The notes: generated by a model not told the origin, from the sequence alone. 64,000 bases of DNA from an uncultured Kiritimatiellota bacterium (GCA_944389945.1 CALXOF010000011.1:539-64538), one strand, 5' to 3'; positions 5,917 through 55,659 are shown, counted from the stretch's first letter. Made by a program: numbers and translations.

Positions 5917-6134
5917 CGGAACTCCCCTGCTCTGCGGAAACGACAATACCTTACCATAATCCTCCACCCCAGCGCAAATGGGCCGGCTCAATACTGTCCG
6001 GGGAAAATGGGAATCGCAAAGACGCAAGGGTAGGCGCGAACCGCTTCGGGCTCCATCGGTCGCTCTGCGGCTTCGCCGCTGACCGCGACCGCCGCCCTCC
6101 GTTTCGCGCCTTGTCGGGTTCTCGTGTCCCCATC

Positions 6135-6187
6135 CGTCGCCCCGCAGGGGCGCTCCGTTCTCCGTTTTCCGTTTTCCGTTCTCCGGC
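6135..6187. repeat. Mosaic intergenic repeat, family B (CGTCGCCCCGCAGGGGCG hairpin + CCGTTCTCCGTTTTCCG heptamer tract)
   Basis: Same composite unit at about 10808-10880, 11141-11210, 12891-12940, 14575-14690, 15105-15145, 28395-28470, 32095-32160, 39655-39745, 50495-50665, 52929-53010, 57725-57795 and 61340-61430. Confidence 0.85.
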
Positions 6188-6194
6188 GAACAGC

Positions 6195-7547
6195 CTAAGC
6201 CTGCTCGCCACGTCGGAGGGGGAGGAGGGTCGGCAAGGTGAGGGGAAGGGCCAGCAGGGCGGCGAGGAGATCGGCGAGGGATTGCGCGGCGACGACGCCG
6301 TTCAGGCCGAAGCAGAGGGGAAGGAGGGCGATGGCGGGGAGGAAACAGAGGCCTTGGCGGGAGGAGGCGCGGATGGGTTTGCGGATGGGTTTGCGGATGG
6401 CTTGCATCATCATGTTGCAGGGGACAATCCAGGCCGAGAGAACCAATGTGCCCATCTGCCAGCGTAGGGCCGAGGCGCCCACTTGGGTGACAAGCGGGTC
6501 GCCCGTCTGGAAGCAGTTGACCACCTCCGGGGCCCAAATCCAGCAGACTGCGGAGACGAGCGCGAGGAAGGCGCCGCCCGCGACGACCAGGAAGTGGAAA
6601 CCTTCGTAGACACGTCGCCAGAGCCGGGCGCCGTAGGCAAAGGCGCAGACCGGTTGGAAGCCTTGGCCCAGGCCGATGAGGGCCGCGCCGAAGAATTGGG
6701 TGAGGCGGGTGACGATGCCCATGCCGGCGAGGGCGGCGGCGCCGTAGGCCGCGGCGGCGTGGTTGAGCGCGGCCATCGCCACGCAAGCGAGGCCTTGGCG
6801 GAAGAGCGAGGGCGCACCGCCGCGCACAATCTCACCGAGCGCGGCGCGGGTGGGAGCAAAGGCCCGCAGACGCACGGGTACCACCGCGGCACGGCGGTTG
6901 AGTCGCCAGAGGAGCAGGAAGCTGACCGTCTGGCTGAGCGCAGTGGCGGCGGCGGCCCCGGCCACGCCCCACCCGAAGACGAAGATGAAGAGCGGGTCGA
7001 GCAGGCAGTTGAGGACGGCGCCGGCGACGATGCCGACCATCGCAAGGGTGGCTTTGCCCTGGAAGCGGAGTTGATTGTTGAGCGTGAGGGCCGCGCACAT
7101 GGGCGGCGCGCCGAGCAGGACGATGGCGACGTAGGGCGCGGCCACGGGGAGAAGGTCGGCGGGCGAGCCGATGGCCAGGGTGAGGGGTCGCAGGAAGAGC
7201 AGTCCCACCGCGGCGAGGATGCATCCGGCCAGCACGGAGCAGACCAACCCCACGGCGGCCATGCGCCGCGCGCCGTGGCGGTCCCCCGCGCCGAGCATGC
7301 GCGCCAGGGTGTTGCCCGAGCCGTGGCCGAAGAAGAAGCCCGTGGCCTGGATAACGGCCATAACGGGGAAGGCCACGCCCACGGCCGCCACGCTCGCGGT
7401 GTCGAGCCGCCCCACGAACCAAACGTCCGCCACGTTGTAGAAGGCGGAGATGAGCATGCTGGCGATGGTGGGGATGGCGAGACGCAGGATGAGCCCCCGC
7501 ACGGGGGCTTCGCGCAGGCGACGCAGGTCTTCGGTGGGGTGAGGCAC
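6195..7547 (-). CDS. MATE family efflux transporter
   Basis: 450 aa with 12 predicted TM segments. N-terminus LILRLAIPTIASMLISAFYNVADVWFVGRL is typical of MATE/NorM. Confidence 0.85.
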   Translation of the reverse strand: MPHPTEDLRRLREAPVRGLILRLAIPTIASMLISAFYNVADVWFVGRLDTASVAAVGVAFPVMAVIQATGFFFGHGSGNTLARMLGAGDRHGARRMAAVGLVCSVLAGCILAAVGLLFLRPLTLAIGSPADLLPVAAPYVAIVLLGAPPMCAALTLNNQLRFQGKATLAMVGIVAGAVLNCLLDPLFIFVFGWGVAGAAAATALSQTVSFLLLWRLNRRAAVVPVRLRAFAPTRAALGEIVRGGAPSLFRQGLACVAMAALNHAAAAYGAAALAGMGIVTRLTQFFGAALIGLGQGFQPVCAFAYGARLWRRVYEGFHFLVVAGGAFLALVSAVCWIWAPEVVNCFQTGDPLVTQVGASALRWQMGTLVLSAWIVPCNMMMQAIRKPIRKPIRASSRQGLCFLPAIALLPLCFGLNGVVAAQSLADLLAALLALPLTLPTLLPLRRGEQA

Positions 7548-14856: not shown

Positions 14857-14885
14857 GGCCCTTTACGGGCCCCTCTGGCCCCTCT

Positions 14886-28680: not shown

Positions 28681-28694
28681 GGCCCTTTTGGGGC

Positions 28695-30290: not shown

Positions 30291-30320
30291 GGCTCTGCTC
30301 CTTGCCCACAGTATAGCAAA
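30291..30320 (-). promoter_or_regulatory. -10-like box TTTTGCTATACT upstream of paralog 1 start
   Basis: Reverse complement reads cttttgctatactgtgggcaaggagcagagccATG. The same TTTTGCTATACTG box lies about 20 nt upstream of the paralog 2 ATG at 40206. Confidence 0.35.
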
Positions 30321-30370
30321 AGGGCAGAAGCTTATGCCGCCCAGAGAACGGAGGCCAAGGCGTTCGGCAA

Positions 30371-30403
30371 ACAAAAAAAGGCCCCCACGCGAAGGTGGAG
30401 GCC
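30371..30403 (-). terminator. Rho-independent terminator after folE (possibly bidirectional)
   Basis: AAAAAAA-GGCCCCCAC-GCGAA-GGTGGAGGCC-TTGTTTGG; on the minus strand the stem is followed by a T7 run. Confidence 0.65.
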
Positions 30404-35381: not shown

Positions 35382-35582
35382 CTGCTGCCTCCTTTTGCCC
35401 GACAGTATACCACATTCTCTTCCTTATCTTCGGAAAAGTTGTATGAAGTGCAACTTTTTACATGGAAAAAGTTGCAAAAGTGATGACTTTTTCGAAGATA
35501 AGGGGATTGGCGCGGGGAAAAGGGGGCTCTAATAGAGGCAACACAGCGCGGGGGATGGGGAGGCCCAAAAGGGTCTTTTCTG

Positions 35583-35672
35583 GACCCTTAAGGGTTTCGG
35601 GTCAGACCACTATAGGGTCTCGCCCCCGACCACTATAGTGGTTGACCTCGGACCACTATAGGGTCTCAGAAA
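35583..35672 (-). repeat. REP-like palindromic element copy A5
   Basis: Same unit. Confidence 0.85.
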
Positions 35673-35686
35673 GGGGTGTTTAGGGG

Positions 35687-38600
35687 TCATTTGACGCTTG
35701 CGGTGCGGAGGGCTTCGAGGTCGGCGCGGTCGCGGGGGGTGAGGGTGGCGCCGAGGGAGACGCGGAGGGTGTCGGCAATGCGGCGGGCCTCGTCTTTCTT
35801 GCCTTCGCCGAGGGCGATCCAGGCATCGACAAAGGCGATGCGGGGGTCGACGGTGAGGTGGAGTTTCTCGGCAATGTCGTGGGCCTGTTGGAGGGCTTCG
35901 CGGGCTTCCTCGAGTTTGCCGGCGCGGGCCAGGGTGAGGGCATAGGTGGCGCGGAGGACGTAGTTCGCGGGGGCGAGGCGAAGGGAGGCGTCCTCGGCGA
36001 TGCGGATGGCTTTGTCGCGGTCGGCGGGGTCGTCGGAGCGCGCGAGGGTCTCGGCGTAGTTGTTGAGGAGCTCGAGGCCGGAGGCTTGGCCGAGGGCGTC
36101 GTAGGCCTGGCCGAAGTAGCGGCGGGCCTCGTTGAAGTTGGCGGCCTCCATGCGCTGGGTGCCGATGACGAAGTTGGCGAAGGGGTTGGAGGGCTCGTCG
36201 CGGAGGATGGCGAAGGCATCGGTCTCGGCGGCGGTCTTGTCGCCCAAGCGGCGGTCGATGTGGAGGATGCTTTCGAGGAGGCGGCTGCGGATACGGGGGC
36301 GGAGGGAGTAGGCGCGGCGGTAGTGGTCGCGGGCCTCTTTCCAACGCGCGCGGGCGGCGGGAGGCAGGGTGGCGGAGGAGACGGCCCCGGCCTCGGCCTT
36401 GAGCGCTTGGGACTGGGCCAGACGGCCGCGGATGATGGCCGCGAAGTAGGCGTCCTGCCCGGTGGCCTGGGTGAGGTGGGCGATGTAGCCATCGGCAACG
36501 CGGTAGTGTTCCTCGGCGCGGGTCTCGTTGTTGGCGGCGCGGGCCTTGTCGCCGCGCTCGATTTCGATCATGGCGAGCATGGCCCAGCCGTCGAGGGCCT
36601 CGGGATTGGCCTTGAGGTAGGCGGCGATTTCCTTCGCGGCGCCGTCCAGGTCGCCCATGGCCATGAGGTAGGCCGCTTGGTCGAAGATCAGGGGCGTGAG
36701 CGGCGGTCTGGCCTCATCGAGGGCCTGCCGGGCACGGACCAAGAAGCGCGCGGCCTCGGAGGGGTCGCCGTCGCGCAGGGCGATGCGAGTCAGGCCGCGC
36801 AGGGCCTCGGCGCGGAAGAGGGCGTTGCCCTGGCCTTCCGCCTCCTTCAAGAGTTGCTCGTAGTTCTCCTTGGGGAGGTCGGTCGGGCCCTTGAGGGCCT
36901 CGATGGCGCCGGCGGAGTCCTTGACGATGAGGCAGGCGTCGGCACGGGAGAGGGCCTCGGCGAAGACCGACTTGCGGGCATCGAAGTCGCGCATATAGAC
37001 ATCGACGACGGCCCCGGCGCGGGCCAGGTATTGGCCGGCCTCCTGTAGGTTGCCCCGCTGGAGCGACAGACGGGCCAGGCCGCGCAGGGCCTCGAAGTTG
37101 TCGGGATCGTACTTCAGCACGCCGCGATAGAGCGCCTCGGAGCTCTCCAGCTGGCCGTGGAGCTCGTAGACGGCGGCGGTGGCGACGTTGACGTTGGCGA
37201 GGGAGGCGTCGCCCAGCGCGGCGCGGCGGCCGCCCAGGTAGGAGAGGACGGCCTCTGGCGCGGCGGTGGCGGCCCAGCCCCACCCGCGTTGCACAAAGAA
37301 GGCGTAGTTGCGGATGTAGCCGTGGATGTAGCCCACCGAGCCGAAGTCGTAGCGGCGGCCGGTCTCCTGCAACGATTTGGCGAAGGCCTCGAAGTCGGTC
37401 CGAATTTCCTCGCGGTGCTCGGGCAGGAAGCCCCGCTCGACGCAGAGGTAGAAGGCGTTGAGCTTGGCCGAGAGGTTCTCCGGGTTGGTCTTGAAGGCGT
37501 AGTAGTAGCAATCGGCGGCCTGGGCCAGACGCTTCTGTGCGGTGGCCGCCAGGGTCTGCGCCTCATCGGTGCGGCCCTGGTGTGCGGCCTCGAGGGCGTT
37601 GGCCTCGGCCAGTGCGCCCTGGTCGTTGAGCCACACACCCTGGTTGTTGGCCATGAAGGCGAGGTGCCGGCGGACGGCGCCCTGCGTGCTACGGTTCAGG
37701 TCCCACCACGGGAGGGGCTCGCCCTCCACCACGGGCGCCCAACGGGTCTGCAAGTCGCGTTGCGCCGCGAGCAGGGCCTCCACCTCCGTCTCGGAGGCCA
37801 GGTGTTGAGCGGGCGTGGGCAGATAGAAGGTGCCCTTGGGCAGGGCCCGCTGCGCGCCGGCCCCAACGTCCTCCGTGACGCGATGCGCGTCAAGGGCGAA
37901 CCAGACGTCGGCCCGGTCATAGGTCGCCGCGATTTCACGCACGTTCGGCTGCGCCTTGAAGAAATCCTCCACGAAGACATAGAAATTGTAGTCCAGCAGG
38001 TGCGTCAGGCGCAGACGGTCCCCCACCCCAAGCGCGGGGTCCTCCTCCAGCCGCCGGCGCAGCCGCGCGGCATAGGTGTTGCGCCGCAGGGCGGCGTCCA
38101 ACGCCTTCTCGGCCTCGGAATCCGGCTCCGTTTCGGCCATCCCCAAGCGATCCGCCAGCCTCAGCACAAAGATGGTCAAAGGGAATCCGCGCTCCCGCGC
38201 CACCAGCGCCAGGTGCGGGTCAATCGTCCCCAGCCGGGAGCCCAGCAGATAGGTGCGGTTTTCCTGCCGCAACGCCTCCACCGTCTCGGCGGCGAAACGC
38301 GTCGCCATGCCCCGGTCCATCGCCAAGAAGCGCGCCGTCTGCACCCAGTCCGCCACTCCGAGCGCCGCAATCGCCGCCGCGAAGACCACGCCCGAGACGG
38401 CGCGCCCCGCCTTCACCGCCCCCGGCTCAAGATGCGTGTCCGGGTCAAGATAGGCCAGGGCCTTTGCAAAGAGCTGCACGCCCCAGCCAGCCACCAACAT
38501 GCCGCAGGCCAATGCGCCGGTCCACCCCACGGCCAACGGTTGCGCCCCGAGCCCCAGCCAATTCGCCCAGGGCGACAACGCCTCCAGGCCCCACTGCAAG

Positions 38601-39604: not shown

Positions 39605-39849
39605 AAAGACTCCTCCGATGGAAATATCTGTAAGTATACCATAAGGGGCGAACGGCGTTGCCGCCCGCCCCGGAGAACGAAGGGCAGAGAATAGAGAACA
39701 GAGAACGGAGAACAGAAAACAGAACGCCCCCGCGGGGCGACGGGTGGAGCCAAGAAATCGGCAAGCCTCCTTTTCCCAGACTCTACTGCGAAGATAGCCG
39801 GCGCTGGGGGCTACCCAATGACAGGTGTCGAAGATGGCATATCTTGCGA

Positions 39850-39960
39850 AAGGCAGTGATGTTGATGTTGATTTAGAGAAGGCAAATGACAGGTCTTTAG
39901 CAAGGGTGTATGATACATTCACCGGCCTCTAAGCCGCTCAACTGCCATTTGGGTAGATTT
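39850..39960 (-). repeat. Mosaic repeat family H copy (reverse orientation)
   Basis: Reverse complement matches 9085-9190. Confidence 0.75.
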
Positions 39961-40003: not shown

Positions 40004-40036
40004 GTTAACTCTTTGAGCGCCCCTTCAGGGGTGCGA
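40004..40036. repeat. Left 28-bp inverted repeat (CTTTGAGCGCCCCTTCAGGGGTGCGAT) bounding the paralog-2 segment
   Basis: Reverse complement of 42090-42122 (27/28 identity). Found only at these two sites in the window. Confidence 0.75.
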
Positions 40037-40205
40037 TAGCGTGGAAATCCCAAGGGCGGCGCAATCAACGGGAGCGAGGAAGCCCATAGGGTTTCCTCGC
40101 AAGACCGTCTTCGCGGTAAAACTTCCCCGGACACTGCTGGGGCTCATTACTGGGACGTTATCTCACGTGTGTGCTTTTGCTATACTGACGGCAAAGGAGC
40201 GCGAC

Positions 40206-41777
40206 ATGGGACAGAAAATCGCACAGGGTGTCTATGACTTCCGCATCATGCGGGAGGATGGCTACGTCTATGTGGACAAGACGGCGTTGCTGGGCGACTT
40301 GGTCACCGGCGGGCGCGATGCCTACTATTTCATCTCCCGTCCGCGGCGTTTCGGCAAGTCGCTCATGCTCTCCACGCTGAAGTACATCTTCCAGGGCAAG
40401 CGCGACCTCTTCAAGGGCCTTGCCATCGACAAGATGGACTACGACTGGGCGGAGTATCCCGTGTTGCACTTCTCCTTCGCCGGCATCAAGGTCAAAACGT
40501 TGGAAGCCTTTGAAAGAAATTTCTGCCTCCGTGTCAAGAAAGTGTTGACCGAGGCAGAATGTTCCTGGAATGAAGAGGCGTCCCCCGATGCGAACTTCAA
40601 TCAAGCCATCACAGAGCTTGCCAAAAAGAAGGGCAAGCCCGTGGTGATTCTCATTGACGAGTACGACGCGCCGGTGGGCCATGCCTTGGCTGACGCCAAA
40701 CTTGCCTCGGACATTAGGCAGGACCTCTCTGATTTCTATATCCAAATCAAGGAATGTGCCTCAGACGTCCGCTTTATGATGATGACGGGCGTCACGCGCT
40801 TTGCCCAACTCTCCGTCTTCTCCGCACTGAACAATCTCAACGACCTGACGATGGATGCGCGTTACGCCACGCTGTTGGGTTACACCGAGGAGGAGTTGGA
40901 CGCCAACTTTGATGAGGACCTGCGCGAGCACGCTGAAATCATGGACCTTTCCTATGAGGACTACCGAGCCGAACTCCGCCGGTGGTATAACGGCTACCGT
41001 TTCGCCAAGAACAACCCCGTGCGGGTCTACAATCCCGTCGCCATCGCCAAGACCCTCGGCCCGAAAGAGCCGACCTTTGCGCCCACGTGGTCGAAGACCG
41101 GAACCCCTTCCGTACTGATTAACTATCTGTCCGACCACGAACTGACGGAGATGGATTACGACAACGTGGAGAACATCTCCGAAGATGACCTCGACATCTG
41201 CCGCTTGGAGGCCATCTTGCCGGTCTCCATCCTCTATCAAAGCGGTTACCTCACCATCAAGGACTATTCCGAATGGGGCTTTACCCTTGGCGTCCCTAAC
41301 GAAGAGGTCCGCCGTGGTCTCGCCTTGCTCTTGGCTCAGTATGCCACCAAGGGTTTTGCGGTCGACTATCATGGTTCGCTCTGCACGCTTCTCAGCAAAT
41401 GCGACTTCCAAGGCTTTTTCGCCAAGCTCAAGGCGCTCTATGCACACCTGACCTACGGTTCCACTGAGATACACGTACACGAATCCAGTTACCTGCGTCC
41501 GCTCTATGCTCTGTTGGCCTCGCACCCCGCCCTCCGCGTGATTGCCGAGGATACGCAGGCCAAGGGACGTGCCGACCTCGTGGTCGAGAGCCAACGTAAC
41601 ATCTACGTCTTTGAGCTCAAGGTCGACAAAACCGCCGCCGAGGCCCTCGCGCAAATCAAAGAACGCGGCTATGCCGAGCCTTACAAAGCCCTGGGTAAGC
41701 CCATCCACCTCATCGGCCTCAACTTCAAATCCGCGACCCACTCCCTCGACGACGCCGTGGTCGAACCGTTGGCGTAA
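40206..41777 (+). CDS. AAA-ATPase-like domain protein with PD-(D/E)XK-like C-terminal domain, paralog 2
   Basis: MGQKIAQGVYDFRIMREDGYVYVDKT; ISRPRRFGKSLMLSTLKYIFQGKRDLFKGLAIDKMDYDWAEYP; C-terminal GRADLVVESQRNIYVFELKVDKT. Confidence 0.85.
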   Translation: MGQKIAQGVYDFRIMREDGYVYVDKTALLGDLVTGGRDAYYFISRPRRFGKSLMLSTLKYIFQGKRDLFKGLAIDKMDYDWAEYPVLHFSFAGIKVKTLEAFERNFCLRVKKVLTEAECSWNEEASPDANFNQAITELAKKKGKPVVILIDEYDAPVGHALADAKLASDIRQDLSDFYIQIKECASDVRFMMMTGVTRFAQLSVFSALNNLNDLTMDARYATLLGYTEEELDANFDEDLREHAEIMDLSYEDYRAELRRWYNGYRFAKNNPVRVYNPVAIAKTLGPKEPTFAPTWSKTGTPSVLINYLSDHELTEMDYDNVENISEDDLDICRLEAILPVSILYQSGYLTIKDYSEWGFTLGVPNEEVRRGLALLLAQYATKGFAVDYHGSLCTLLSKCDFQGFFAKLKALYAHLTYGSTEIHVHESSYLRPLYALLASHPALRVIAEDTQAKGRADLVVESQRNIYVFELKVDKTAAEALAQIKERGYAEPYKALGKPIHLIGLNFKSATHSLDDAVVEPLA

Positions 41778-41783
41778 GGCGGA

Positions 41784-41884
41784 CCGCCTCCCTCCATCTC
41801 GCCCCGAGAACTACATCCTCCGCGCCACCTACGCCCTCACCTTGGCCCGCGCCAACAAGCTCGAGGAGGCCCGCGAAGCCAGAT
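41784..41884 (+). pseudogene. About 100-bp fragment homologous to the 3' coding end of the TPR membrane protein gene (35687-39604)
   Basis: Encodes ENYILRATYALTLARANKLEEAREA, compared with ANYVLRATYALTLARAGKLEEAREA near the C-terminus of the full gene. About 88% nt identity over about 85 bp; opposite orientation to the full gene. Confidence 0.6.
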
Positions 41885-42050
41885 GGGCTAACGCCGGTCG
41901 CTTTGCGGCTAAACGCCCGCTGATCGCTCCCCCCCACCCATCGTCTTCGCGCTTGGGCCGTCTTAAGAAGCCCTTTTGCGCAGGAAAGAGGGGTGTGGGA
42001 GGGCGCACGACTGTGCGCCCGGCGTTAGCGCCCCACCTTTCCTGCAAGAT

Positions 42051-42089
42051 TTGCGTCTTTGCGGTCTCCATTTTCCCCGGACAGGATTG
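42051..42089 (+). repeat. 39-bp direct repeat TTGCGTCTTTGCGGTCTCCATTTTCCCCGGACAGGATTG (left copy; right copy at 49007-49045)
   Basis: Perfect 39/39 identity between the two copies, which bracket the low-GC island. A diverged reverse-orientation copy lies at about 5960-6000. Confidence 0.85.
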
Positions 42090-42122
42090 ATCGCGCCCCT
42101 GAAGGGGCGCTCAAAGAAGTCC
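42090..42122. repeat. Right 28-bp inverted repeat partner of 40004-40036
   Basis: GATCGCGCCCCTGAAGGGGCGCTCAAAG. Confidence 0.75.
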
Positions 42123-42345
42123 GATATACACTCCTACATTCAATTGTTAAAGATCAATCGCGGTGTAATGCTTAGTACCACGCCTCCTTACCAAAGGCCT
42201 GTCATTCGCCCTCCCTCTAAATCCCCACAACTTCTTCATTCCCATACCTATTCGCCATCTCCAAAATCTGTCACTGGCAGAGGGCGTTCCCTTCTGCCCA
42301 CCTTAGAGATGATAATTAGCATAATACTTCTCTTGTTACATCTCA

Positions 42346-42906
42346 CTAGTCACGAGGCCGCGTGTAGGGCACGGGGCCATAACGATTGGATCTCGGGTCA
42401 CTGGGATATAACAACATAATAAAAAGTGTAATCCAACCTATAATCGGGAGGAAATGCAGATACCACCATCCACCAGAGAAGTTCGCGTCATGCAACCTTC
42501 TGACCGTCAGCGAGATGCTTGGGATGCATGTAACAAGAACATAGAGAGAGATTACGATTCCTATGGGCGTACCAATGAAATAGCTTGAGTTTTCGTGATC
42601 ATAGAGAATTAAGACAAGCGCGTCCGGTAGAGCGAAGAGAATCCTCATCCACCAGTATTCTGCGCGAGAAGCACGCCCATTCAATGACCAATGAGTCCAA
42701 TACCCCATCCACGCCTCATCGAATGAGGCAATCCGTTGTGGACCTGCCGGGACTTCCTCTTCTCTTGGTACGTATTGTTGATTTTCCCTAGGAGGTGGCG
42801 TGCGCGGTGAATTCGCCTTACGGTCACTTGTTGGCCGTGTCCGTCTTTGTTGCTTGGCGTGCTTTTGCCCAATATGCTCTTTCAAGAATCGTTCCGCTTC
42901 ACTCAT
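42346..42906 (-). CDS. DUF805-family inner-membrane protein
   Basis: RASRAEYWW..RRLHD and 3-4 TM helices fit DUF805 (YhaH/YjdF-like), with an extra about 70-aa basic, P-rich N-terminal extension. Overlaps the upstream gene stop by 8 bp. Lies in the low-GC island. Confidence 0.65.
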   Translation of the reverse strand: MSEAERFLKEHIGQKHAKQQRRTRPTSDRKANSPRTPPPRENQQYVPREEEVPAGPQRIASFDEAWMGYWTHWSLNGRASRAEYWWMRILFALPDALVLILYDHENSSYFIGTPIGIVISLYVLVTCIPSISLTVRRLHDANFSGGWWYLHFLPIIGWITLFIMLLYPSDPRSNRYGPVPYTRPRD

Positions 42907-44005
42907 GGTCGCCCTCCTTATCTTTTCGGGCAGTAGGGATAGGAGTTCGTTGCATACGATTATTCTGCATCTGTGGTAATGACAAGCGCTCCATCACGAG
43001 ATCCCTTCCTTGACGTTGGCTGAAGGGGGAGTCTAAATGCTTTGATTGCGCGTTATTCGCAGAATTTGTCTCTTTTCTGTCGGGGACAACCTTATCTATT
43101 CCCTTTGGTTGGTTTTTGGGTGTTTCGACATCTTTATCTGGCGCTACTGATGGCTTCGCTTTTGTTGCCCCGTTTTGTTCTGCATTCATTTCTTGCAACG
43201 CATTCCGAGTTTGCTCCAACTCGATTACGAGGGCGTCTCGCTCTTTCTGTACTGTCGCATACTCTTCCGTAAGAGTTTCTAGCGTGCGTTTGGTGCTTTG
43301 CCATTGCCAAATGGTCCATCCCAACGCAGCGAGGGCCAAGAGCGTCGTAATCGCACAAGCAATTGTAATGGTCACACCAATAGAAGGCGTTTTAGACGAC
43401 TTTGGTACGCTGTGAGTAGATGCTACCCTGATTGAATTGGTCTGAGAAGGTCGTTTCAGAGTCGGGATTTTCCCAACATCGTGTGATACATGTGGGAATG
43501 AAGTTTTGACTTGCACGGATTCTCCCGGCGCGGATCTACGTAGGGTCGCCGAGGCTGTCGCTGGCAATGCTGCGACAAGCGCGCCAACCGAAACAAAATC
43601 AGACATCTTTGTGGGAATTGCGGATAAAGGCGACTGCGTTTGCCCATCGGCCTCGGCTTCGAAGAATGCTTGTGGGGCATGAGTCGGTTCGGCAAGTGCC
43701 GAATCGGCAAGAAGTGCCTCGAAATCCGTTGAAGCGGCATCTTCCCGTGTCACCCAGGTAACTGCCAGATAGGTCGCGTCCCGTCCACGGAAGTCCCATC
43801 CCGGCACACTCTGACACCGCATCGCGAAGACACGGTCGGGGGTAATCCAAATCCCCTCGAACCCGGCCTCACCTGCATCGAAGTCCGGCAATCCGCCAAA
43901 AGCTTTCCGGCAACCATCAAGGGAGGCAAAGTCAATCTCTGAGCGCGGATACTTCCAGTTCAACCCATGTTCCGCCGTATAAATGGCCAGAGGATATAGT
44001 CCCAT
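42899..44005 (-). CDS. Single-pass membrane protein: unknown about 230-aa N-terminal cytoplasmic domain, TM, coiled coil, disordered S/K/P-rich tail
   Basis: Start MGLYPLAIYTAEHGLNWKYPRSEIDF lies 2 bp after the PrsW-like gene stop. TM segment IGVTITIACAITTLLALAALGWTIWQW; coiled coil TLETLTEEYATVQKERDALVIELEQTRNALQEMNAEQ. No family recognised. Confidence 0.55.
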   Translation of the reverse strand: MGLYPLAIYTAEHGLNWKYPRSEIDFASLDGCRKAFGGLPDFDAGEAGFEGIWITPDRVFAMRCQSVPGWDFRGRDATYLAVTWVTREDAASTDFEALLADSALAEPTHAPQAFFEAEADGQTQSPLSAIPTKMSDFVSVGALVAALPATASATLRRSAPGESVQVKTSFPHVSHDVGKIPTLKRPSQTNSIRVASTHSVPKSSKTPSIGVTITIACAITTLLALAALGWTIWQWQSTKRTLETLTEEYATVQKERDALVIELEQTRNALQEMNAEQNGATKAKPSVAPDKDVETPKNQPKGIDKVVPDRKETNSANNAQSKHLDSPFSQRQGRDLVMERLSLPQMQNNRMQRTPIPTARKDKEGDHE

Positions 44006-44007
44006 CG

Positions 44008-45072
44008 TCACACTCCTTTCGGTGCCATTCCCCAAGCCGCAACTTGAGTTGCACCTCGTTTTGCAAGGTAAAAGATCAGAATCCACAGTGCCAAACAACC
44101 CCATCGCACTGGACCTTGCGCTGGTCCGTGTACCGGCACAATCATATTCCAAATGCAATGAATGACCGCCATGCCAATCAAAACCGCCCAAGGAAGCCAC
44201 CCTCCGAGAGCCAGCCATCCGATACGATTCGGACCGCGGGTTGCCCACATTGCCCCGCCAAGCGCACCGGTCCAAGCCAAATGCATCAATGGTGAGAGTA
44301 GGCCTCTTACCAAAAGAACCAATGTGGAGGGGGCGCCACCTTCACCATATCCATAGGCATAACCTATGGTTTCGAAGATGGCGAAGCCAGAGCCTACGCA
44401 GACTCCAAGGGCCAATCCAGAGAAAATCCCGGGGAATTGCTTGCTGAACATCGCCAGAATCAAAAGAACCAATCCTTTGGCGGGTTCTTCTATCAGCCCT
44501 GCGAGTTCAGCAGCAGGAGGGATTTCCAATAATTCCCATAAAAAGAGTGACAAAAATAGTGATAGAAACCCTCCTAGTATTGTCACTAATGCGGCAACCC
44601 ACCAGGTGACACGCCGTGTCACATCCATCTCGCAAAAGAGCGTGATGGCAGTCACAGGGATACAGGCCGCCATCACACAGGTATACAACCAGTGAAAGCC
44701 TGGTTCCACTGCCATCAACATCCACAATACGATGCACGTGGCCACCCCAGCACCCAGCACCCACCTCCACCGCCAACTCCATGGACGCCCCAACAGGCGA
44801 AACCAAGCATCGACCGGACATTCCACCGGCATATGTTTTGTTTCAGGCCATGGAGAGTCCCAATTGTTTCTCTCTTGCTCTTCATCTTGTTGAGAGAAAA
44901 TATAGTCCCATTCGTCTTCCCGTGTATTCTCTTCCGTCTCTCTCCATTCTGTCCGCTGCTGTGACTTAGAGGAATGCTCTTCTGGTCTAGGCCGAACCAC
45001 AGAGTGATACGTCGCCTTGTGGCCTTGTTCTCCGGAGAAGCGGCGTGCCAAAAAGTTGTCTTTTTGATTCAT
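44008..45072 (-). CDS. PrsW-family (CPBP-like) intramembrane glutamic protease
   Basis: Multi-TM protein with EEPAKG (EExxK), FAIFETIGY (FxxxE) and HLAWTGALGG motifs characteristic of PrsW-family proteases, plus an acidic about 100-aa N-terminal region. Confidence 0.65.
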   Translation of the reverse strand: MNQKDNFLARRFSGEQGHKATYHSVVRPRPEEHSSKSQQRTEWRETEENTREDEWDYIFSQQDEEQERNNWDSPWPETKHMPVECPVDAWFRLLGRPWSWRWRWVLGAGVATCIVLWMLMAVEPGFHWLYTCVMAACIPVTAITLFCEMDVTRRVTWWVAALVTILGGFLSLFLSLFLWELLEIPPAAELAGLIEEPAKGLVLLILAMFSKQFPGIFSGLALGVCVGSGFAIFETIGYAYGYGEGGAPSTLVLLVRGLLSPLMHLAWTGALGGAMWATRGPNRIGWLALGGWLPWAVLIGMAVIHCIWNMIVPVHGPAQGPVRWGCLALWILIFYLAKRGATQVAAWGMAPKGV

Positions 45073-45102
45073 CGTGGCAGAACCTTTGCGTCAAGACCTG
45101 AT

Positions 45103-47271
45103 TCAGAAGCCATAGCGCATACGAGCGCGTACGCGTTCAAGTGCCTTTTTTGCGTTTTCCTCCCCCACGTTGTAATTTTGCTTAGCGGCTTCCTTATACC
45201 ATTTCTCAGCTTCCTTAAGTTTATTCAATTCTTCATAGGCGACGCCAAGATAGTATTGCGCAGAGGCGTCCCCGCGCTTGGCGCGTGGTAAAATATAATT
45301 GACGGCTGTTGTGCAGTTCTTTTGGACACCGGTTCCGGTCAAATACATCATGCCCAAGTAAAATTGCGCATAATCGTCTCCGTTGTTCATAGCCATTTGA
45401 AGCCAACGAAGCGCTTCCGAATAAGAGACGGACACACCCCAGCCTTGGCAATACATGATTCCTAACACGCGTTGCGCCGCTGCATTTCCTTGCTCTGCGG
45501 GTTGAAGGAATAATCTGGCGGCCTCTTGGTAAGATTGGATAACCCCTTGCCCATTATAATAGAGACAGGCCAATTCATATTGTGCATCAACATAGCCTTG
45601 ATCTGCGGCCCTTTGATACCATCCCGCAGCTTTGGGATAAGACTGGGGAACGCCTGTCCCATTTGCGTAATGCACTGCCAAGTTATATTGCGCGGCAGGC
45701 ACGCCCTGGATTGCCGCTTTCGTATAATAATCTATGGCAACAGTGGTCGATGCATTAACCCCATATCCATTGTCGTACATCACGCCTAACAGATTGTAGG
45801 CCTTCCCATAATTTTGGTCGGCGGCCTTCCACAACCATTTTAAGGCTTCTTGATAGGAGCGTTGGCCTCCGGTTCCCAGAAAATAGGCTTCGGCGAGTTT
45901 ATATTGAGCCTCTGGGAGGTCTTCTTCCGCTGCTTTTAGGTACCACTCAACGGCCTTGTCCCATGATTGTTCAACTCCTAAACCCTTTTCATAAAGGTTG
46001 CCCAAGTTGGTCTGCGCATACAGATGACCTTGTTCTGCTGCTTGTTGATACCAATGAAAGGCCATCGCGTACGACTGCTCCACGCCATTACCATATTCAT
46101 ACAGGAGGCCAAGCAAATTTTGTGCAACGGGCTCTCCTCCTTCCGCAGCTTTCTCATACCAATCTGCGGCTTGAGACATGGATTGTCTCACACCCCTCCC
46201 ATTTGAATAGGCCCATCCAAGGTCCGTGTGAGCAACAAGGTCGCCGGCGTTCGCGGCTTTACGAAGCCAACGAAGACCATTTCGGTCGGATTGGAGACTT
46301 CCTTTTGAAAACAAATACAACTCGCCCAATAAACGCATGGCGATGACATTGTCTTGCTCTGCGGACCGTTTAAACCACTTTTGGGCTTCTGTTTCAGATT
46401 GGTCTACGCCATCCCCATTCTGATAGCATTCTCCAAGACGCATTTGCGCCTCCGCATTGCCTTGTTCTGCAGATTTACGAAACCATTCCGCTGCGCGCAT
46501 ATTTGACTGTTCAACCCCCTTGCCAAGCGCGTAGGCGTATGCGACAATGAGTTGGGCTTCTTCGTCTCCTTTTCCCGCCAAAGAGTGCCATACGATAAAT
46601 GCCTTTTCGGGAGATTTCTCAACGCCAAGTCCTTCTTCATACAGGACGGCGAGAATCCATTGGGCAAATGGATTATCCATATTGGCGGCTTTTAGTATCC
46701 AGGGAAATGCTTTTCCGTAGTCTTGCGGGACAAGTATCCCTTTACAATATACCTCCCCAAGCGCGACCATTGCCTCTAGATAGTCCTTGTTTGCCGCGTT
46801 TGTCAGCCAGGTGACCATCGCGTTGCCGTCTTTGGGAAGCGAGTTGTCTTTCAATCTTCCAGTGTCTGTTTCGTACCCATAATGGCGGGCCACATAAAAA
46901 CAAACCTCCGCAGAGGCGTGCACGACAGCATCATCACCTGCGGCAGAAAGAAGGTTGTCCAGCGTCACATGGGCATCACTCAAGCAGGTCTCAAAGTCGT
47001 TGTTATGTAGAGGGCATATCTGAAGCGTGGTGGACTCTCTGTCCTCAAATCCAAAGTTCGCGCAAAGGGCAAGGCGACATTGTGCCGTTTCGTTGGCTCT
47101 GTTGGCGGCTTCTCGATAACAATTATATGCGCTGGCGTCACCTGATTGTAGGAGCGTGTCGCCACGTTCACAGTAAGCATCCGCACGATAGGACCGAATG
47201 AGCGGACGAGCGATGAAAGCTGACAACAGAAGAATGACTTCTATGACAATGATGGGGGTAATTTTTTGCAT
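45103..47271 (-). CDS. Sel1-repeat (SLR) protein, 722 aa, N-terminally membrane-anchored
   Basis: N-terminal TM/signal anchor ITPIIVIEVILLLSAFIA, then about 19 tandem Sel1-like repeats (G.GV.QS...A..WY.KAAEQG). GC is clearly lower than window average. Confidence 0.85.
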   Translation of the reverse strand: MQKITPIIVIEVILLLSAFIARPLIRSYRADAYCERGDTLLQSGDASAYNCYREAANRANETAQCRLALCANFGFEDRESTTLQICPLHNNDFETCLSDAHVTLDNLLSAAGDDAVVHASAEVCFYVARHYGYETDTGRLKDNSLPKDGNAMVTWLTNAANKDYLEAMVALGEVYCKGILVPQDYGKAFPWILKAANMDNPFAQWILAVLYEEGLGVEKSPEKAFIVWHSLAGKGDEEAQLIVAYAYALGKGVEQSNMRAAEWFRKSAEQGNAEAQMRLGECYQNGDGVDQSETEAQKWFKRSAEQDNVIAMRLLGELYLFSKGSLQSDRNGLRWLRKAANAGDLVAHTDLGWAYSNGRGVRQSMSQAADWYEKAAEGGEPVAQNLLGLLYEYGNGVEQSYAMAFHWYQQAAEQGHLYAQTNLGNLYEKGLGVEQSWDKAVEWYLKAAEEDLPEAQYKLAEAYFLGTGGQRSYQEALKWLWKAADQNYGKAYNLLGVMYDNGYGVNASTTVAIDYYTKAAIQGVPAAQYNLAVHYANGTGVPQSYPKAAGWYQRAADQGYVDAQYELACLYYNGQGVIQSYQEAARLFLQPAEQGNAAAQRVLGIMYCQGWGVSVSYSEALRWLQMAMNNGDDYAQFYLGMMYLTGTGVQKNCTTAVNYILPRAKRGDASAQYYLGVAYEELNKLKEAEKWYKEAAKQNYNVGEENAKKALERVRARMRYGF

Positions 47272-47282
47272 AGCGCCCTCCT

Positions 47283-48464
47283 TTATGCGGTCGCGATGAC
47301 AAACCACCAAGCGATGAGTATCAGCACACCAAGTAAAATTGTGATGGCGATGGCTGCAAATCGTTTTTCACGAGAGTCGGCAGTGGCCTGCAGATAACGA
47401 GAAATCCCTGCCAAGAGCGCGTTTTTCCACCGAGCGCCGAGTTCGGTTTTCGGGTCACAATCGCAAAGCCTTTCGGCAAGGCCTTGTGATCCATGCCGGA
47501 CACAATCAAGCAATGCCCGGATATCCTTTTGTTCATCAGAGGAAAAGATGATGCCGTTCTCAACGAGTCCACGTTCTGAGAAAAACCACAATGCTACGGA
47601 AGCTTTACGTGCGGAGAGATAGGCATTCCAATCGTGGATAAGGGAGTGCGCATCCCGTTCGGACAGTGTTTCGCAAAAGTCCTTCCAGGCATGCGAAAAA
47701 GCCCTAAGCGCATTTTGCAATGCCTCAAAGGGGTTTTGAACACAGGGTGCGTCAACAAAACAACGCGCAAATAGGCCATCAAGTCCAAATGTCTCATGGG
47801 CCTCACCAATGGCGGAAACGGCAAGGACGTCTAGCGATGGGAAGTTTTTGGCGAGAAGGGGAAGGTAATGGGCAACATATGCTTGTGGGTCAAACTCCCC
47901 CATGCCAAGGTCGACGTAACGGTCGATTTGGGTGAGGAGGAGGGTGATTTGGGGGTGAGAGGGGAGGCGGTGGAGGTAGTCCAGGCAGGCGTTGGTGACC
48001 CAGACGGCATCAAGATTGGCGCCATTGCCGGCCACATCCTCCGCATCGGCAAGATTAAAAAGGACGAAAACCTGATCAGAGTCAATCAAATGCCCAAGGA
48101 GTGCGGAAATCTCCTCTTGGTTTGCGGCAACACGTTCGCGAAAGCCGTCTGGGTCTGGGTCGTCCTTTGCATCAAGGAAGGCCAAACGGTAGACTTCACC
48201 CGGATAATCGAGGATGTCCAACGTCCGTTGAACCTCGTCTTGGTATACCACACTCCATTGCAACTGTCGCAACGATGTGGTCTGGTGCGGCAGGCTGTTC
48301 CCGGAGACATTCTCCGGCACCTGCGAGAGAAAACGGAAGGCACCGCGGGTTTCAGGGCGCAGATACCACCCTTCAGCCTCGTGCGCCTTGAAGGCATTGA
48401 CGAGCGCCATTGTCAACACCGTCTTACCGGAACCTTCGACACCCAAAAAGGTTACATTTCCCAT
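47283..48464 (-). CDS. Ras-like/TRAFAC P-loop GTPase with C-terminal transmembrane tail anchor
   Basis: Start MGNVTFLGVEGSGKTVLTMAL (G1), DILDYPGE (G3 DxxG) and LLTQID (G4-like), a helical middle domain, and C-terminal TM FAAIAITILLGVLILIAWWFVIATA. AAGGAG Shine-Dalgarno box 7 nt upstream. Confidence 0.65.
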   Translation of the reverse strand: MGNVTFLGVEGSGKTVLTMALVNAFKAHEAEGWYLRPETRGAFRFLSQVPENVSGNSLPHQTTSLRQLQWSVVYQDEVQRTLDILDYPGEVYRLAFLDAKDDPDPDGFRERVAANQEEISALLGHLIDSDQVFVLFNLADAEDVAGNGANLDAVWVTNACLDYLHRLPSHPQITLLLTQIDRYVDLGMGEFDPQAYVAHYLPLLAKNFPSLDVLAVSAIGEAHETFGLDGLFARCFVDAPCVQNPFEALQNALRAFSHAWKDFCETLSERDAHSLIHDWNAYLSARKASVALWFFSERGLVENGIIFSSDEQKDIRALLDCVRHGSQGLAERLCDCDPKTELGARWKNALLAGISRYLQATADSREKRFAAIAITILLGVLILIAWWFVIATA

Positions 48465-49006
48465 GATATTCTCCTTATTGATGCCAATGGACAACACGAG
48501 GACCGGGCATGGTACACCATGCCGGATGGTTTACACGACAGATTCTGATTGCGACAGACAACATAAAAGGCGCACTCCGTTTGCACGTTCCCAAACAGAG
48601 GCCGACCAAAGCCCGCAAAAGAAAACGTACAAACAAAAGCACGCCAGGGGATAACCCTGACGCGCCTCCGCGGTACCTTCGCCTTTTGCGTAGAAATTGG
48701 TCGTTTCTGTTTGGCGACTGTATGCGAAAACGCATCCAAAGCGCTCCAAAGGGGGAGCCCTCTGGAGCTATGTGCCATAAGAATAGCTCATAACCCGAGC
48801 AACTGTCAACTCTCAATAGTGTTCGGGGAAGGTTTTGTCCATGTATATTGTTTTCCGCGCCTCGAAGAGGGGTAAAGTGTTCTGCCACACTGCCAGACCT
48901 TTTTCCTGTAGAAAAGATCACGAGGCGCGAAACGGAGGGCGGCGGGCGCGGTCAGCGGCGAAGCCGCAGAGCGGCCGATGGAGTCCGAAGCGGTTCGCGC
49001 CCACAG

Positions 49007-49045
49007 TTGCGTCTTTGCGGTCTCCATTTTCCCCGGACAGGATTG
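49007..49045 (+). repeat. 39-bp direct repeat, right copy (see 42051-42089)
   Basis: Identical 39-mer. Confidence 0.85.
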
Positions 49046-49089
49046 GGGCAAAGAGCCCCCCGCCGGTGCCCCTTAAAGGGGCTTTCGCG

Positions 49090-49160
49090 GACCCTTAAGG
49101 GTTTCGCCTCGGACCACTATAGGGTCTCACCTCGGACCCTTAAGGGTTTCTCCAAGAGCC
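49090..49160 (-). repeat. REP-like element copy A6 (truncated)
   Basis: Contains GGACCACTATAGGGTCTCACC and two ACCCTTAAGGGT palindromes. Confidence 0.7.
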
Positions 49161-49415
49161 CTCCAGCCCCCTGGGGAAAGGGGGCCGGATGGCCTCTACA
49201 TCTGCTATATAATTATATAATAAGGTAGGGGCGAAAGGGGCGCTGATGCGCCCCGGAGAACGGTGCCAGTTTCCACGAAGACACAAAAGGAACGCAAGGG
49301 CCTGGGCACTTCACCGTTCGGCGCATATGCGCCTCACTCACTATCCCCATCCCTTGCGTTTCTGGAGTTTTGTGATACAACAGTTTTGTGATACAACAGT
49401 GATGGGAAATAAAAG

Positions 49416-49448
49416 TGACGGGGACATGCCCCGTCACTTTCGATTGGC
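49416..49448 (-). terminator. Rho-independent terminator after the acidic protein gene
   Basis: Perfect hairpin GTGACGGGGCATGTCCCCGTCAC followed on the minus strand by TTTTATTTCCC. Confidence 0.65.
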
Positions 49449-49488
49449 CATTCAGCCGATGCTGTTGTCGCGGCTTTCGCCGACAGGC

Positions 49489-50331
49489 TCAGTCCTCCTC
49501 GCCGTCTTCGTCTTCCTCGTCGTCCAACGGCTTGACGAGGGCAAAGAATTCCTCCACCGCGTCATTGACCTTCTTGATCAGGTGGTTGACGTCTGTCCGG
49601 TCGGCCTTCTTGGGAAGGTTTTCCGGGGTGATCAATTCGCCGAGGTCCTCCGTGAGGTGCTTGATACGGCCGATATAGGCATGGGTGTCGCTCGTGATCG
49701 AACGCAAGAGTTGATGTCGGTGCTCGGGGTCTGCGATTTCGTTGGCGAGGATGTTGGCGAAATGAAGGGTCGTGGAAGGATCGGCAATCATGAGGACAAA
49801 CCGAAAGCCCTCGATGGTCCCGGAGGGGTCAATGGTAATCCGGGGATCCTCTTTCAAGATGGAGATAAGGAAAGAGGCGGTGTGAAGATCGTCTGTCGCG
49901 GCGTTGACGAAGTTGGCGCGCCCATATTCCTTCACAATCTCGTCCAATTCCTCGGCAGAGAGGTCGTCGAGGGGCTCATCTCCCGTCTCCTCTTCCTCCG
50001 CATCTTCCTCTTCTGAGACCTCACTGTCGCCATCGTCGTCCTCGTCTTCCGGTTGGACGACGAGGCGGTCGTAGAGATCGGAGATGGATTCGGCGCGTCC
50101 GGGGAGGCCACGGCTATCCCGGATGACACCCCAATCCTCGTCCTTGATTGCGATGTCGAGGTCACCGACAAACCCGATGTGAAGCACATCCTTGTCCTTC
50201 TCATCGAAGCAAACCCCCTGGATGTCCTGCCACCCAACGAGGAAGCCACCTCGGCACTTCGGCAAGAAAAGTCCCTCTTCCACAAAAATCGCCGCATAGG
50301 CGAGTTCGGGGTTTTCGTCTACATTGTCCAT
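49489..50331 (-). CDS. Hypothetical acidic protein (poly-D/E stretches)
   Basis: 280-aa ORF with reasonable composition and a strong downstream terminator; no motif recognised. Confidence 0.5.
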   Translation of the reverse strand: MDNVDENPELAYAAIFVEEGLFLPKCRGGFLVGWQDIQGVCFDEKDKDVLHIGFVGDLDIAIKDEDWGVIRDSRGLPGRAESISDLYDRLVVQPEDEDDDGDSEVSEEEDAEEEETGDEPLDDLSAEELDEIVKEYGRANFVNAATDDLHTASFLISILKEDPRITIDPSGTIEGFRFVLMIADPSTTLHFANILANEIADPEHRHQLLRSITSDTHAYIGRIKHLTEDLGELITPENLPKKADRTDVNHLIKKVNDAVEEFFALVKPLDDEEDEDGEED

Positions 50332-50676
50332 GATTCAACCTTCCTTCTGGATTGTCTTTCGTGCGGTAGACACCGGGCAGACTTCCCGCCAAGCATATCA
50401 CGCAACGCCATTGTAGCATAATCCCCGCGACAACCAATAATATCGGGGAGAGCTTTTCACGAAGACACAAAGGAACGCAAGGGACTGGCACAAGGGGCGC
50501 TAGCGCCCCCCGGAGATTAGCTGATTGGCTGATTGGTGGCGGCTGACGCCGCTCTGCACAACGCCCCCTCCGTCGCGCGCTTGCCGCGCGTTCCGTTCTC
50601 CGTGGCCGTGGAAGGTTTGTCCCTTCGGGCCTGCACGCTCCGTTTTCCGTTCTCCGGGGATGGCCATCGGCCGCCC

Positions 50677-52928: not shown

Positions 52929-53045
52929 GGGCGGCGGCGTTGCCGCCGCCCTGGAGAACGGAGACCGGAAAACGGAGAACAGAGCGTGCGGCAAGCGCGC
53001 GACGGAGATGCCGCTGTATGACCTCCTTTAGCACATCCCAAAAGG

Positions 53046-53150
53046 GTCCTTTCTGAGACCCTATAGTGGTCCGAGGTCAACCACTATAGTGGTCGGAGGT
53101 GAGACCCTATAGTGGTCGGGGTCGAAACCCTTAGGGGTCCAGAAAGGGCC
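53046..53150 (+). repeat. REP-like palindromic element copy A7
   Basis: GAGACCCTATAGTGGTCCGAGGTCAACCACTATAGTGGTCGGAGGTGAGACCCTATAGTGGTCGGGGTCGAAACCCTTAGGGGTCC. Confidence 0.85.
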
Positions 53151-53232
53151 CTTTAGAGGCCCCCTGCGAACGGTAAAACTTTCCCCGGAGGGCAGTGGGT
53201 GTGCTAGAATAACGGCAGAAAGGATGTGAACG

Positions 53233-55266: not shown

Positions 55267-55659
55267 ATGAAGCACAACGTCAAAGTCACCATCCTTGACA
55301 AGAAATGCTATCCTGAGCTCCAGCGACAGTATTGCAAAGACCCCAACGCCGGTCCCTGCCCCTGCTACAACATCGGCGATGAGTTCATCTTTATGCGTGA
55401 TGAAGGGCGCGATGACTATTGGCACCTGGGCCTCAACACCCTCGTCAAGACAACCGGCAATCCCGACACCGTCGCCGGCGGGCCCAAGATGCCCTTCTGC
55501 TCCGAACTCTGGGACGCCATCTCCCGCTATATCTACACCGGTCTGCAGGGCGGCTCCATCATGGAGGGCTGGATGACCCAGGAAAACACCATGATCACCT
55601 GCTGTAACGACGGCACCCGCCCCGTCATCGTCAAAATCGAACGTATCGACTACGAATAA
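55267..55659 (+). CDS. Small cysteine-rich protein, TIGR04076-like
   Basis: 130 aa; MKHNVKVTILDKKCYPELQRQYC..GPCPCYNIGDEFIF matches my recollection of the TIGR04076 family; assignment tentative. Confidence 0.45.
   Translation: MKHNVKVTILDKKCYPELQRQYCKDPNAGPCPCYNIGDEFIFMRDEGRDDYWHLGLNTLVKTTGNPDTVAGGPKMPFCSELWDAISRYIYTGLQGGSIMEGWMTQENTMITCCNDGTRPVIVKIERIDYE

Follow-up and report, generated by a model that had tools for sequence, protein, structure and literature searches.

A low-GC segment between two direct repeats

We analysed a 64,000-nucleotide stretch of DNA from an uncultured Kiritimatiellota bacterium (GCA_944389945.1, CALXOF010000011.1:539-64538), referred to below as the window, and concentrate on the segment at positions 42090-49006, which lies between two identical 39-nt direct repeats. 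The segment carries an operon of five genes, encoding in order a Ras-like GTPase, a Sel1-repeat protein, a PrsW-family intramembrane protease, a protein with a TagF/longin-like domain and a DUF805 membrane protein. Outside the repeats lie, on the left, a gene for a protein with AAA-ATPase and PD-(D/E)XK domains and, on the right, a gene for an acidic protein of 280 aa, whose neighbours are Flp/Tad pilus genes (the coordinates of all these features are collected in Table 1). The best reading of the segment is that it is a horizontally acquired accessory cassette, occupying a strain-variable hotspot between these two conserved genes.

An initial annotation, made from the sequence alone, had described a low-GC island of about 7 kb bounded by perfect repeats, and both halves of this description hold. 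The exact 39-mer, TTGCGTCTTTGCGGTCTCCATTTTCCCCGGACAGGATTG, occurs twice in the same orientation, at 42051-42089 and 49007-49045, and none of 100 shuffled sequences gave such a match. In a pairwise alignment of the two repeat regions, identity starts and stops sharply at the edges of the 39 nt. A gene start inside the 39-mer (ATG GAG ACC...) was considered and rejected, as the two apparent open reading frames (ORFs) diverge at once and look non-coding.

The base composition of the segment departs strongly from that of its surroundings. GC content is 0.49 to 0.54 in all seven 1-kb bins between 42 and 49 kb (0.51 overall, versus 0.65 outside), whereas the 52 bins lying outside 39-50.5 kb have a mean of 0.646 (standard deviation 0.042), which places the island mean at z = -3.1. 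Measured against the rest of the window, the two 3.5-kb stretches that cover the island have tetranucleotide distances of 0.043-0.044, and no other stretch exceeds 0.0225. The difference in codon usage, also claimed by the initial annotation, is equally clear: GC content at third codon positions (GC3) is 0.49 to 0.56 in the five island genes, and 0.72 to 0.89 in the flanking genes, including the two that abut the repeats. Raw GC is also mildly depressed, to 0.55-0.60, across 39.5-50.5 kb; despite this wider dip, the codon-level discontinuity falls at the repeat-bounded segment.

No gene pointing to a classical integrative element was found. The window contains no tRNA or tmRNA gene, and the Pfam hits of the island genes, like those of the genes within 10 kb on either side, include no integrase, recombinase or transposase domain. 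A search for DNA similarity of the whole island to plasmids or phages (blastn, distant mode) returned none.

Alleles of the site and the repeat family

To collect alleles of the site, exact-protein look-ups were made for one gene of the island, the two flank genes and a pilin gene nearby; they yielded dozens of conspecific metagenome contigs, whose flanks are 89 to 100% identical. Between the 280-aa and the AAA-ATPase/PD-(D/E)XK genes, at least seven states were found. The operon of the window is present in at least eight records, among them one that matches the window over 10.5 kb at 100% identity, and a version of it with a diverged GTPase C-terminus and a Sel1 protein of 1091 aa occurs in L003, L008 and L010. 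Other contigs carry a ResIII and Eco57I restriction-modification pair (L020 and the NCBI metagenome-assembled genome, or MAG, GCA_949285125.1), a PEP-CTERM protein (L012, L013, L016, L018, L019), a phosphonate ABC/Fe-ADH/HAD set (L059, L061, L062, L063) or a junction to rpoD (L015). Finally, five contigs, from five samples, are empty (L017, L055, L057, L060, L064).

The initial annotation had proposed looking in close relatives for flanks joined across a single repeat copy, and this is the structure of the empty alleles in these conspecific strains. Their alignment to the window runs to 42089 and resumes at 49007, the overlap being exactly the 39-mer. The right outer flank, called U, is joined straight to the left repeat and the sequence that accompanies it, with zero mismatches in the repeat. 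The flanks of the empty contigs differ by 2 to 11% from those of the filled strain (89-98% identity to the window) and show other structural differences too, so that these contigs are not misassemblies of the filled strain.

Among the filled alleles, L020 has the same two repeats, the same right end (to 48923) and an inner-left end of 211 nt (42090-42300) 100% identical to that of the window; the middle alone differs. The PEP-CTERM and phosphonate alleles lack the repeats. The flank genes themselves have exceptions, as L062 and L063 are without the 280-aa gene and L015 is without the AAA-ATPase gene. Reference-MAG loci orthologous to the window were sought, and none extends beyond 552 nt at the right repeat element.

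Two side observations concern the surroundings of the site. The window holds a second AAA-ATPase_like/PD-(D/E)XK gene at 28695-30374 (minus strand), 84% identical over 1 kb to the hotspot-flanking copy at 40206-41777 (plus strand). Among strains, the flanking copy varies in identity from 82 to 98%, a spread suggestive of exchange with its paralogue. A second variable spot, at a distance of 1 kb (window about 50400-50650), has the Flp pilin genes on one side and the 280-aa gene on the other; in L012, L013, L018 and L019 it is occupied by an RloB and AAA_21 pair (OLD/abortive-infection-like, at about 7575-9574).

The 39-mer belongs to a dispersed family of miniature inverted-repeat transposable elements (MITEs). 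Hereafter, 'head' denotes the 39-nt terminal inverted repeat (TIR), 'tail' its inverted partner, and B1, B2 and B3 the types of body. A degenerate pattern of the head, searched against GTDB with one genome per species, gave 24 sites; all of them are in the MAG 'uncultured Kiritimatiellaeota bacterium BRZ_EK__bin27', and the other GTDB species have none. The copies share the head consensus CAATACTGTCCGGGGAAAATGGrrAyCGCAAAGACGCAA, followed by a B1, B2 or B3 body, and full-length copies terminate in an inverted, slightly diverged head, ...TTGCGGTAAAACTTCCCCGGACACTATTG. Such inverted pairs define 16 elements with a spacing of 232 to 357 nt, that at 48814-49045 in the window included; the elements measure 230 to 360 nt, are intergenic and have no coding capacity. 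Target duplications of 9 bp are exact in L038 (TGTTTGTGG) and L032 (CGTCAAATC), match at 8 of 9 positions in L029 and are approximate in L025; the two copies bounding the island have none. At the position of a third copy of the window (5989-6213), strains L065 and L066 have 31 nt instead, which indicates an insertion polymorphism. This copy is the diverged one that the initial annotation had placed at about 5960-6000; it is real, its head lies at 5989-6027 and it has the opposite orientation.

Taken together, the copy number, the inverted tails, the 9-bp duplications and the polymorphism between strains identify the 39-mer as the TIR of a mosaic MITE family, a new one with 39-nt TIRs and a 9-bp target duplication. 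Being a unit of a dispersed repeat and the end of a MITE, the 39-mer marks a recombination hotspot and not a dedicated att site. The initial annotation had raised this as a caveat, which turns out to be the more accurate half of its interpretation. No autonomous insertion sequence (IS) with the same TIRs was detected in the contigs examined, where neither an inverted pair 0.8-3 kb apart nor a transposase was found. The head pattern had no match in JGI metagenomes or IMG/VR, which therefore gave no further alleles, and MITEs in Kiritimatiellae did not turn up in a full-text search of the literature. A known RNA as the identity of the repeat was rejected on the Rfam result: there is no match at gathering thresholds in the whole window, and at E values up to 1 both junction regions gave chance microRNA matches only.

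The two MITEs that bound the island differ in structure. The right one is complete, with its tail TIR CAATAGTGTTCGGGGAAGG at 48814-48832, and has no target-site duplication; on the minus strand, about 125 nt from its head recur at 5989-6114 of the plus strand with 91% identity. The outer terminus of its head, CAATCC..., adjoins the conserved flank U, and this head is a private variant combining CAATCC with GGAGACC. The CAATCC variant is found in both island heads and at no other locus among 27 heads. The GGAGACC variant accompanies 8 of 11 B2 bodies elsewhere and none of 13 B1 bodies (Fisher p = 2e-4). As it is otherwise found on B2 and never on B1 bodies, the right MITE is best described as a chimera of a B2-type head and a B1 body.

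The left MITE, of B2 type, is cut off at the start of a fragment of the TPR gene, and is kept in the empty alleles. The TPR fragment, shared by all alleles with the left MITE, is the scar of an old rearrangement. The B2 element that follows rpoD in L015 was considered as the equivalent of the left MITE, but its head region is different, so that it represents another copy. On the island side, the left head is abutted by a hairpin module (42090-42117) of the MITE interior, which is internal to full-length MITEs elsewhere. A half MITE, running from such a module to a tail TIR, is situated directly upstream of the promoter-like TGCTATACT of the AAA-ATPase gene. An inversion between the hairpin modules at 40010-40037 and 42090-42117 was considered and rejected, since either orientation leaves one incoherent junction.

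Two other repeats are found near the MITEs. A repeat of about 100 nt (CCAAAGrCCTGTCATTCGCCyTCTCTAAATC...) is present at 9099-9195 (plus strand), 39812-39908 (minus) and 42178-42230 (plus). The first two copies lie upstream of uvrC and of the TPR gene, and the third, inside the inner-left end of the island, suggests that this end is the relic of a native promoter or leader region. Arrays resembling repetitive extragenic palindromic (REP) sequences occur at 1557-1664, 1855-1947, 14759-14872, 28572-28692, 35568-35675, 49069-49150 and 53037-53159, one of them directly outside the right MITE head. Their units are about 22 nt long, with the palindrome GACCCTTAAGGGTC or ...TATAGGGTC, and the copy number differs among strains.

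Table 1. Position and strand of the island genes, the MITE copies and the flanking features in the window
Feature	Position	Strand	Description
Third MITE of the window	5989..6213	+	head and B1 body, about 225 nt; orientation opposite to the island heads
Half MITE	40010..40139	+	hairpin module to tail TIR ...CTTCCCCGGACACTGCTG; inverted-repeat match
AAA-ATPase gene, conserved left flank	40206..41777	+	AAA-ATPase_like and PD-(D/E)XK (PDDEXK_9), 523 aa; Pfam; GC3 0.76
TPR-gene fragment	41781..41880	+	100 nt from the 3' part of the TPR gene (35894-35993), 87% identity
Left MITE	41881..42089	-	head and B2 body; truncated, no tail TIR
Left 39-nt repeat (left MITE head)	42051..42089	-	exact match; B2-type element
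Inner-left non-coding island end	42090..42345	.	GC 0.47
Gene 5	42346..42906	-	DUF805 membrane protein, 186 aa; PF05656 1e-27; transmembrane segments
Gene 4	42899..44005	-	368 aa; TagF/longin-like domain (residues 1-175), by fold similarity
Gene 3	44008..45072	-	PrsW-family intramembrane protease, 354 aa; PF13367 3e-21; at least 5 transmembrane segments
Gene 2	45103..47271	-	722 aa; N-terminal membrane anchor and about 14 Sel1 repeats; Pfam Sel1 1.4e-112
Gene 1	47283..48464	-	Ras-like/TRAFAC GTPase, 393 aa; motifs GVEGSGKT, DYPGE, TQID
Non-coding stretch upstream of the operon	48465..48813	-	no second copy among the loci examined
Right MITE	48814..49045	-	complete, 232 nt; head, B1 body (to 48920), short interior, tail TIR
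Right 39-nt repeat (right MITE head)	49007..49045	-	exact match; B1-type body follows
Right outer flank U	49046..49488	.	REP-like array of GACCCTTAAGGGTC units, 49069-49150
280-aa gene, conserved right flank	49489..50331	-	acidic protein, no known domain; GC3 0.72

Gain and loss of the cassette

The question arises as to how the cassette comes and goes. We consider it probable that it is gained or lost by recombination across the directly oriented MITE heads, in a hotspot that behaves like a minimal mobile element (MME). Presence and absence would result from exchange between the two identical heads, which have the same orientation: looping out of the segment would leave the arrangement flank-head-B2 and, in the reverse direction, a circle bearing a head would integrate by a Campbell-type event. 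Ordinary homologous recombination on the 39 identical bases would most probably suffice, help from a MITE transposase being less probable. Cassettes may also be swapped within this scaffold, via homologous recombination in their shared ends and in the flanking genes. Both the mechanism and the direction of the event, as given here, are what we infer for this site, and the same holds for the involvement of RecA or of a transposase.

As for direction, insertion into an ancestral flank-head-B2 site is modestly favoured, because the two heads share the CAATCC variant, the right MITE is chimeric and has no duplication, and the empty B2/B2 allele is coherent and found on diverse haplotypes. The initial annotation had seen a horizontally acquired segment inserted by recombination at or next to a repeat unit; composition and the empty sites support this, with insertion itself just slightly preferred. 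Single-nucleotide polymorphisms in the U and B2 flanks were considered as a means of telling insertion from deletion and set aside, as there are too few informative sites and indels in repeat number interfere.

Several observations weigh against the reading given above. Without the island, and beside other genes, the chimeric right MITE with its private head is found both in L015 and in L022, the reference MAG, which fits an old filled or rearranged state, the empty sites being deletions. Between filled alleles, the breakpoints lie at 48923 and 42300, and not at the heads. Cassette exchange thus does not require the heads, and homologous replacement within the shared scaffold and the flank genes must operate as well. 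A single crossover of unlike heads would not give two identical copies, so that either an identical incoming head or a later conversion must be assumed. Among the contigs examined, the island was found at no other head, and no recombination intermediate (circle or junction read) is visible in the assembled contigs. As regards a defence role, no PADLOC system model matched the cargo; PtuA was the sole PADLOC match, a spurious one to the repeats of the Sel1 protein in which no domain passed.

These points lead to the most serious alternative, which we regard as possible, if doubtful: contents may be replaced solely by MME-type homologous recombination in the flank genes after DNA uptake, with the heads as bystanders and the empty sites as secondary deletions between direct repeats. 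At least seven contents between two conserved flank genes are what such a process would produce; the breakpoints away from the heads, the complete lack of heads in the PEP-CTERM and phosphonate alleles and the island-free right MITE of L015 and L022 fit it equally. However, head-to-head recombination would still be required for the five precise empty sites, and the shared private variant and the chimeric, duplication-free right MITE would be left unexplained. This scenario overlaps heavily with the exchange across heads that we favour, the main difference being the role and the direction given to the heads.

More far-reaching is the idea that the 39-nt head is a portable recombination site at which a transposase or recombinase encoded in trans takes up, releases and shuffles cassettes at several loci of the species, as a MITE-based exchange system, the cargo being a membrane GTPase switch not yet described, for phage defence or another conflict. 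We hold this to be unlikely.

Alternatively, a cognate MITE transposase may have moved the segment as a MITE-bounded composite or as a one-ended element. The repeats are true transposon ends, accompanied at other loci by 9-bp target duplications, one insertion junction falls exactly at the outer terminus of a head, and MITE-flanked mobilisation has been proposed earlier (PMC3934969). The composite-transposon route nevertheless fits poorly, because the two heads are in direct instead of inverted orientation, a TIR is missing from the left edge at 42090, and the segment is not enclosed by a 9-bp duplication (flanks ...CTCTTTGCCC and the following sequence). Moreover, no transposase lies near any copy in the loci examined, and the island is seen at this locus only. 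We therefore judge this scenario quite improbable.

A classical integrative island, in which the 39-mers would be the attL and attR sites of a prophage remnant, an integrative mobilizable element or an integrative conjugative element, could account for perfect direct repeats, a foreign composition and a precise empty site with one copy. However, the missing integrase, recombinase and tRNA genes and the missing phage or plasmid similarity speak against it, as does the nature of the 39-mer, a TIR with an inverted partner and target duplications that recurs 24 times or more per genome. Unrelated restriction-modification cargo also lies between the same repeats, and the integrase-mediated att-site reading is effectively refuted. 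Least credible of all is an artefact, in which the empty site or the island would be a metagenome misassembly over the short repeat: with k set below 39, de Bruijn assembly could jump from one identical 39-mer to the other and lose the loop, but the five empty contigs are diverged and structurally distinct as described above, and the filled contigs were recovered independently.

Deletion and Campbell-type integration between short direct repeats are familiar from IS- or REP-mediated rearrangements. As in such recombination, the present site has one repeat copy when empty and two when filled, and no site-specific recombinase is encoded. It departs from the usual direct-repeat exchange in that the repeat is just 39 nt long, near the lower limit for efficient RecA-dependent exchange.

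In the definition quoted in PMC3082526, the MMEs of Neisseria (Saunders & Snyder 2002; Snyder et al. 2007) consist of two conserved genes between which whole-gene cassettes differ by strain. The cassettes have no mobility function of their own, low-GC cargo is typical, and homologous recombination is presumed. The Kiritimatiellota site is like them in these respects, homologous recombination being presumed here too. In contrast to the Neisseria elements, it is bounded by two directly oriented MITE ends, presence or absence of the cassette maps exactly to 39 nt, and the host is an uncultured Kiritimatiellota bacterium.

A second parallel is offered by the 439-bp MITEs that flank class 1 integrons and blaPER-1 in Acinetobacter (PMC3934969), and by the Correia repeat enclosed elements of Neisseria (PMC2649163). 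There too, short non-autonomous intergenic elements with TIRs bracket accessory genes, variable cargo lies within constant MITE boundaries, and their mobilisation or rearrangement has been proposed 'via transposition or homologous recombination'. In Acinetobacter, however, two full identical MITEs and a target duplication support transposition (PMC3934969), whereas here one MITE is complete and chimeric, the other is truncated, the direct heads of 39 nt are all that they share, and there is no duplication.

The locus provides a clean case, at the population level, of short non-autonomous transposon ends structuring a hotspot of gene-content variation in an uncultured and little-studied phylum. 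The same site is found empty, with one cargo or with several others, and the junctions are exact to the base pair. It extends known mechanisms to a new lineage and does not overturn current ideas, this being an ordinary kind of genome variation.

The cargo operon and other variation in the window

The five genes of the operon are co-directional on the minus strand, with spacings of 11, 30, 2 and -8 nt, and all five products have predicted transmembrane segments. The 393-aa GTPase has a helical C-terminal part that ends in a membrane anchor (transmembrane segment 372-390); its structural model has a pLDDT of 90.6, and the N-terminal domain matches Rag, MglA, Ras and Rab (Foldseek E about 1e-4). 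In the 368-aa protein, the longin-like domain is followed by a transmembrane segment, a long helix (209-278) and a disordered tail. The Sel1 protein, together with the C-terminus of the GTPase, is the part that varies most among strains. A consensus scan gave a promoter-like TTGACA-18-TATTCT at 48809-48780 upstream of the operon, the number of such matches not being above chance.

The gene order GTPase-Sel1-PrsW-x-DUF805 recurs in other Kiritimatiellia, between housekeeping genes, where the operon has a GC content of 0.45 versus 0.51 in its flanks. A homologous GTPase cassette in L046 has a GC content of 0.446 versus 0.55-0.62, and the genes downstream of it have no Pfam hits. No repeats flank the same operon in the other genomes; it is not self-mobile. 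The five genes form a conserved membrane module whose composition is foreign to that of the host wherever it is seen, and other strains use its place for restriction-modification or abortive-infection genes. We infer that the cargo is a putative GTPase switch at the membrane, spreading horizontally within the class.

The DO-GTPase profile PF19993 matches the 393-aa protein with E = 0.009 and 16 bits, below the cutoff of 27. Of 30 homologues, 17 match DO-GTPase2 and 13 DO-GTPase1 (best E = 1e-5), again below Pfam thresholds. The protein appears, from its profile matches, to be a distant relative of the DO-GTPases. PDB searches gave only P-loop noise, both with single sequences (the 393-aa and 368-aa proteins) and with a profile of the 393-aa family, and NCBIfam has no equivalog for the cargo. 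No Pfam hit to a GAP1 partner (GAP1-N/M/C) was found in the other four island proteins.

Conflict systems centred on DO-GTPases have been described by Kaur, Burroughs, Iyer & Aravind 2020 (PMC7159879). The cargo resembles them in having a TRAFAC GTPase in which a glutamate follows the DxxG of Walker B (DYPGE), membrane-proximal parts, an associated peptidase, a hypervariable repeat protein and a setting among defence genes. It differs from them in its sub-threshold profile matches, in a single GTPase instead of a pair, and in that no GAP1 was detected, the partner having a TagF/longin-like fold instead. The GTPase and the TagF/longin-like protein, both membrane-anchored, appear to form a putative bacterial GTPase-regulator pair that is seemingly uncharacterised. 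Homologues of the two also seem to co-occur on the same contigs across Kiritimatiellia (L045, L048), judging from their homologue lists, in which the lengths of the longest contigs agree (for example 263684, 113908, 72364, 30322 and 19376). The cargo is possibly a conflict or defence module; what suggests such a role is solely the neighbourhood of the hotspot, with its restriction-modification genes, Abi_2 and RloB/AAA_21.

Variation in the window is not confined to the hotspot. A block of 4 kb at 4839-8918 is inverted in two strains (L065 and L066) relative to L067-L072. It contains the genes permease-MatE-167aa-TPK-HMA and lies between uvrB/nitroreductase and uvrC. The junctions of the inverted strains bear inverted copies of another repeat (CTGGCAGTCCTGCGTGCGCTAGCACGCCCTTAATCTGC), and a solo sequence resembling a MITE TIR, CAATACTGTCCGGGAAAGT, lies beside the inversion breakpoint at 8935-8953.

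A perfect tandem duplication of 284 bp (1572-1855 and 1855-2138, 100% identity), either genuine or produced by the assembly, includes REP-like units and extends into the 3' end of uvrB (minus strand, 2052-4127). At the edge of the window, positions 1-1500 form a second low-GC stretch (0.47), with no convincing ORF. At this position, related contigs carry an ankyrin-repeat gene, just 78% identical in one strain, and such divergence makes it probable that this is another variable region. An ORF of 130 aa at 55267-55659, between the CBM9 and 367-aa genes, is cleanly absent in some strains (L016, L017). The high-GC part of the window includes an ORF of 4005 aa (12 kb), at 15148-27165 on the minus strand.

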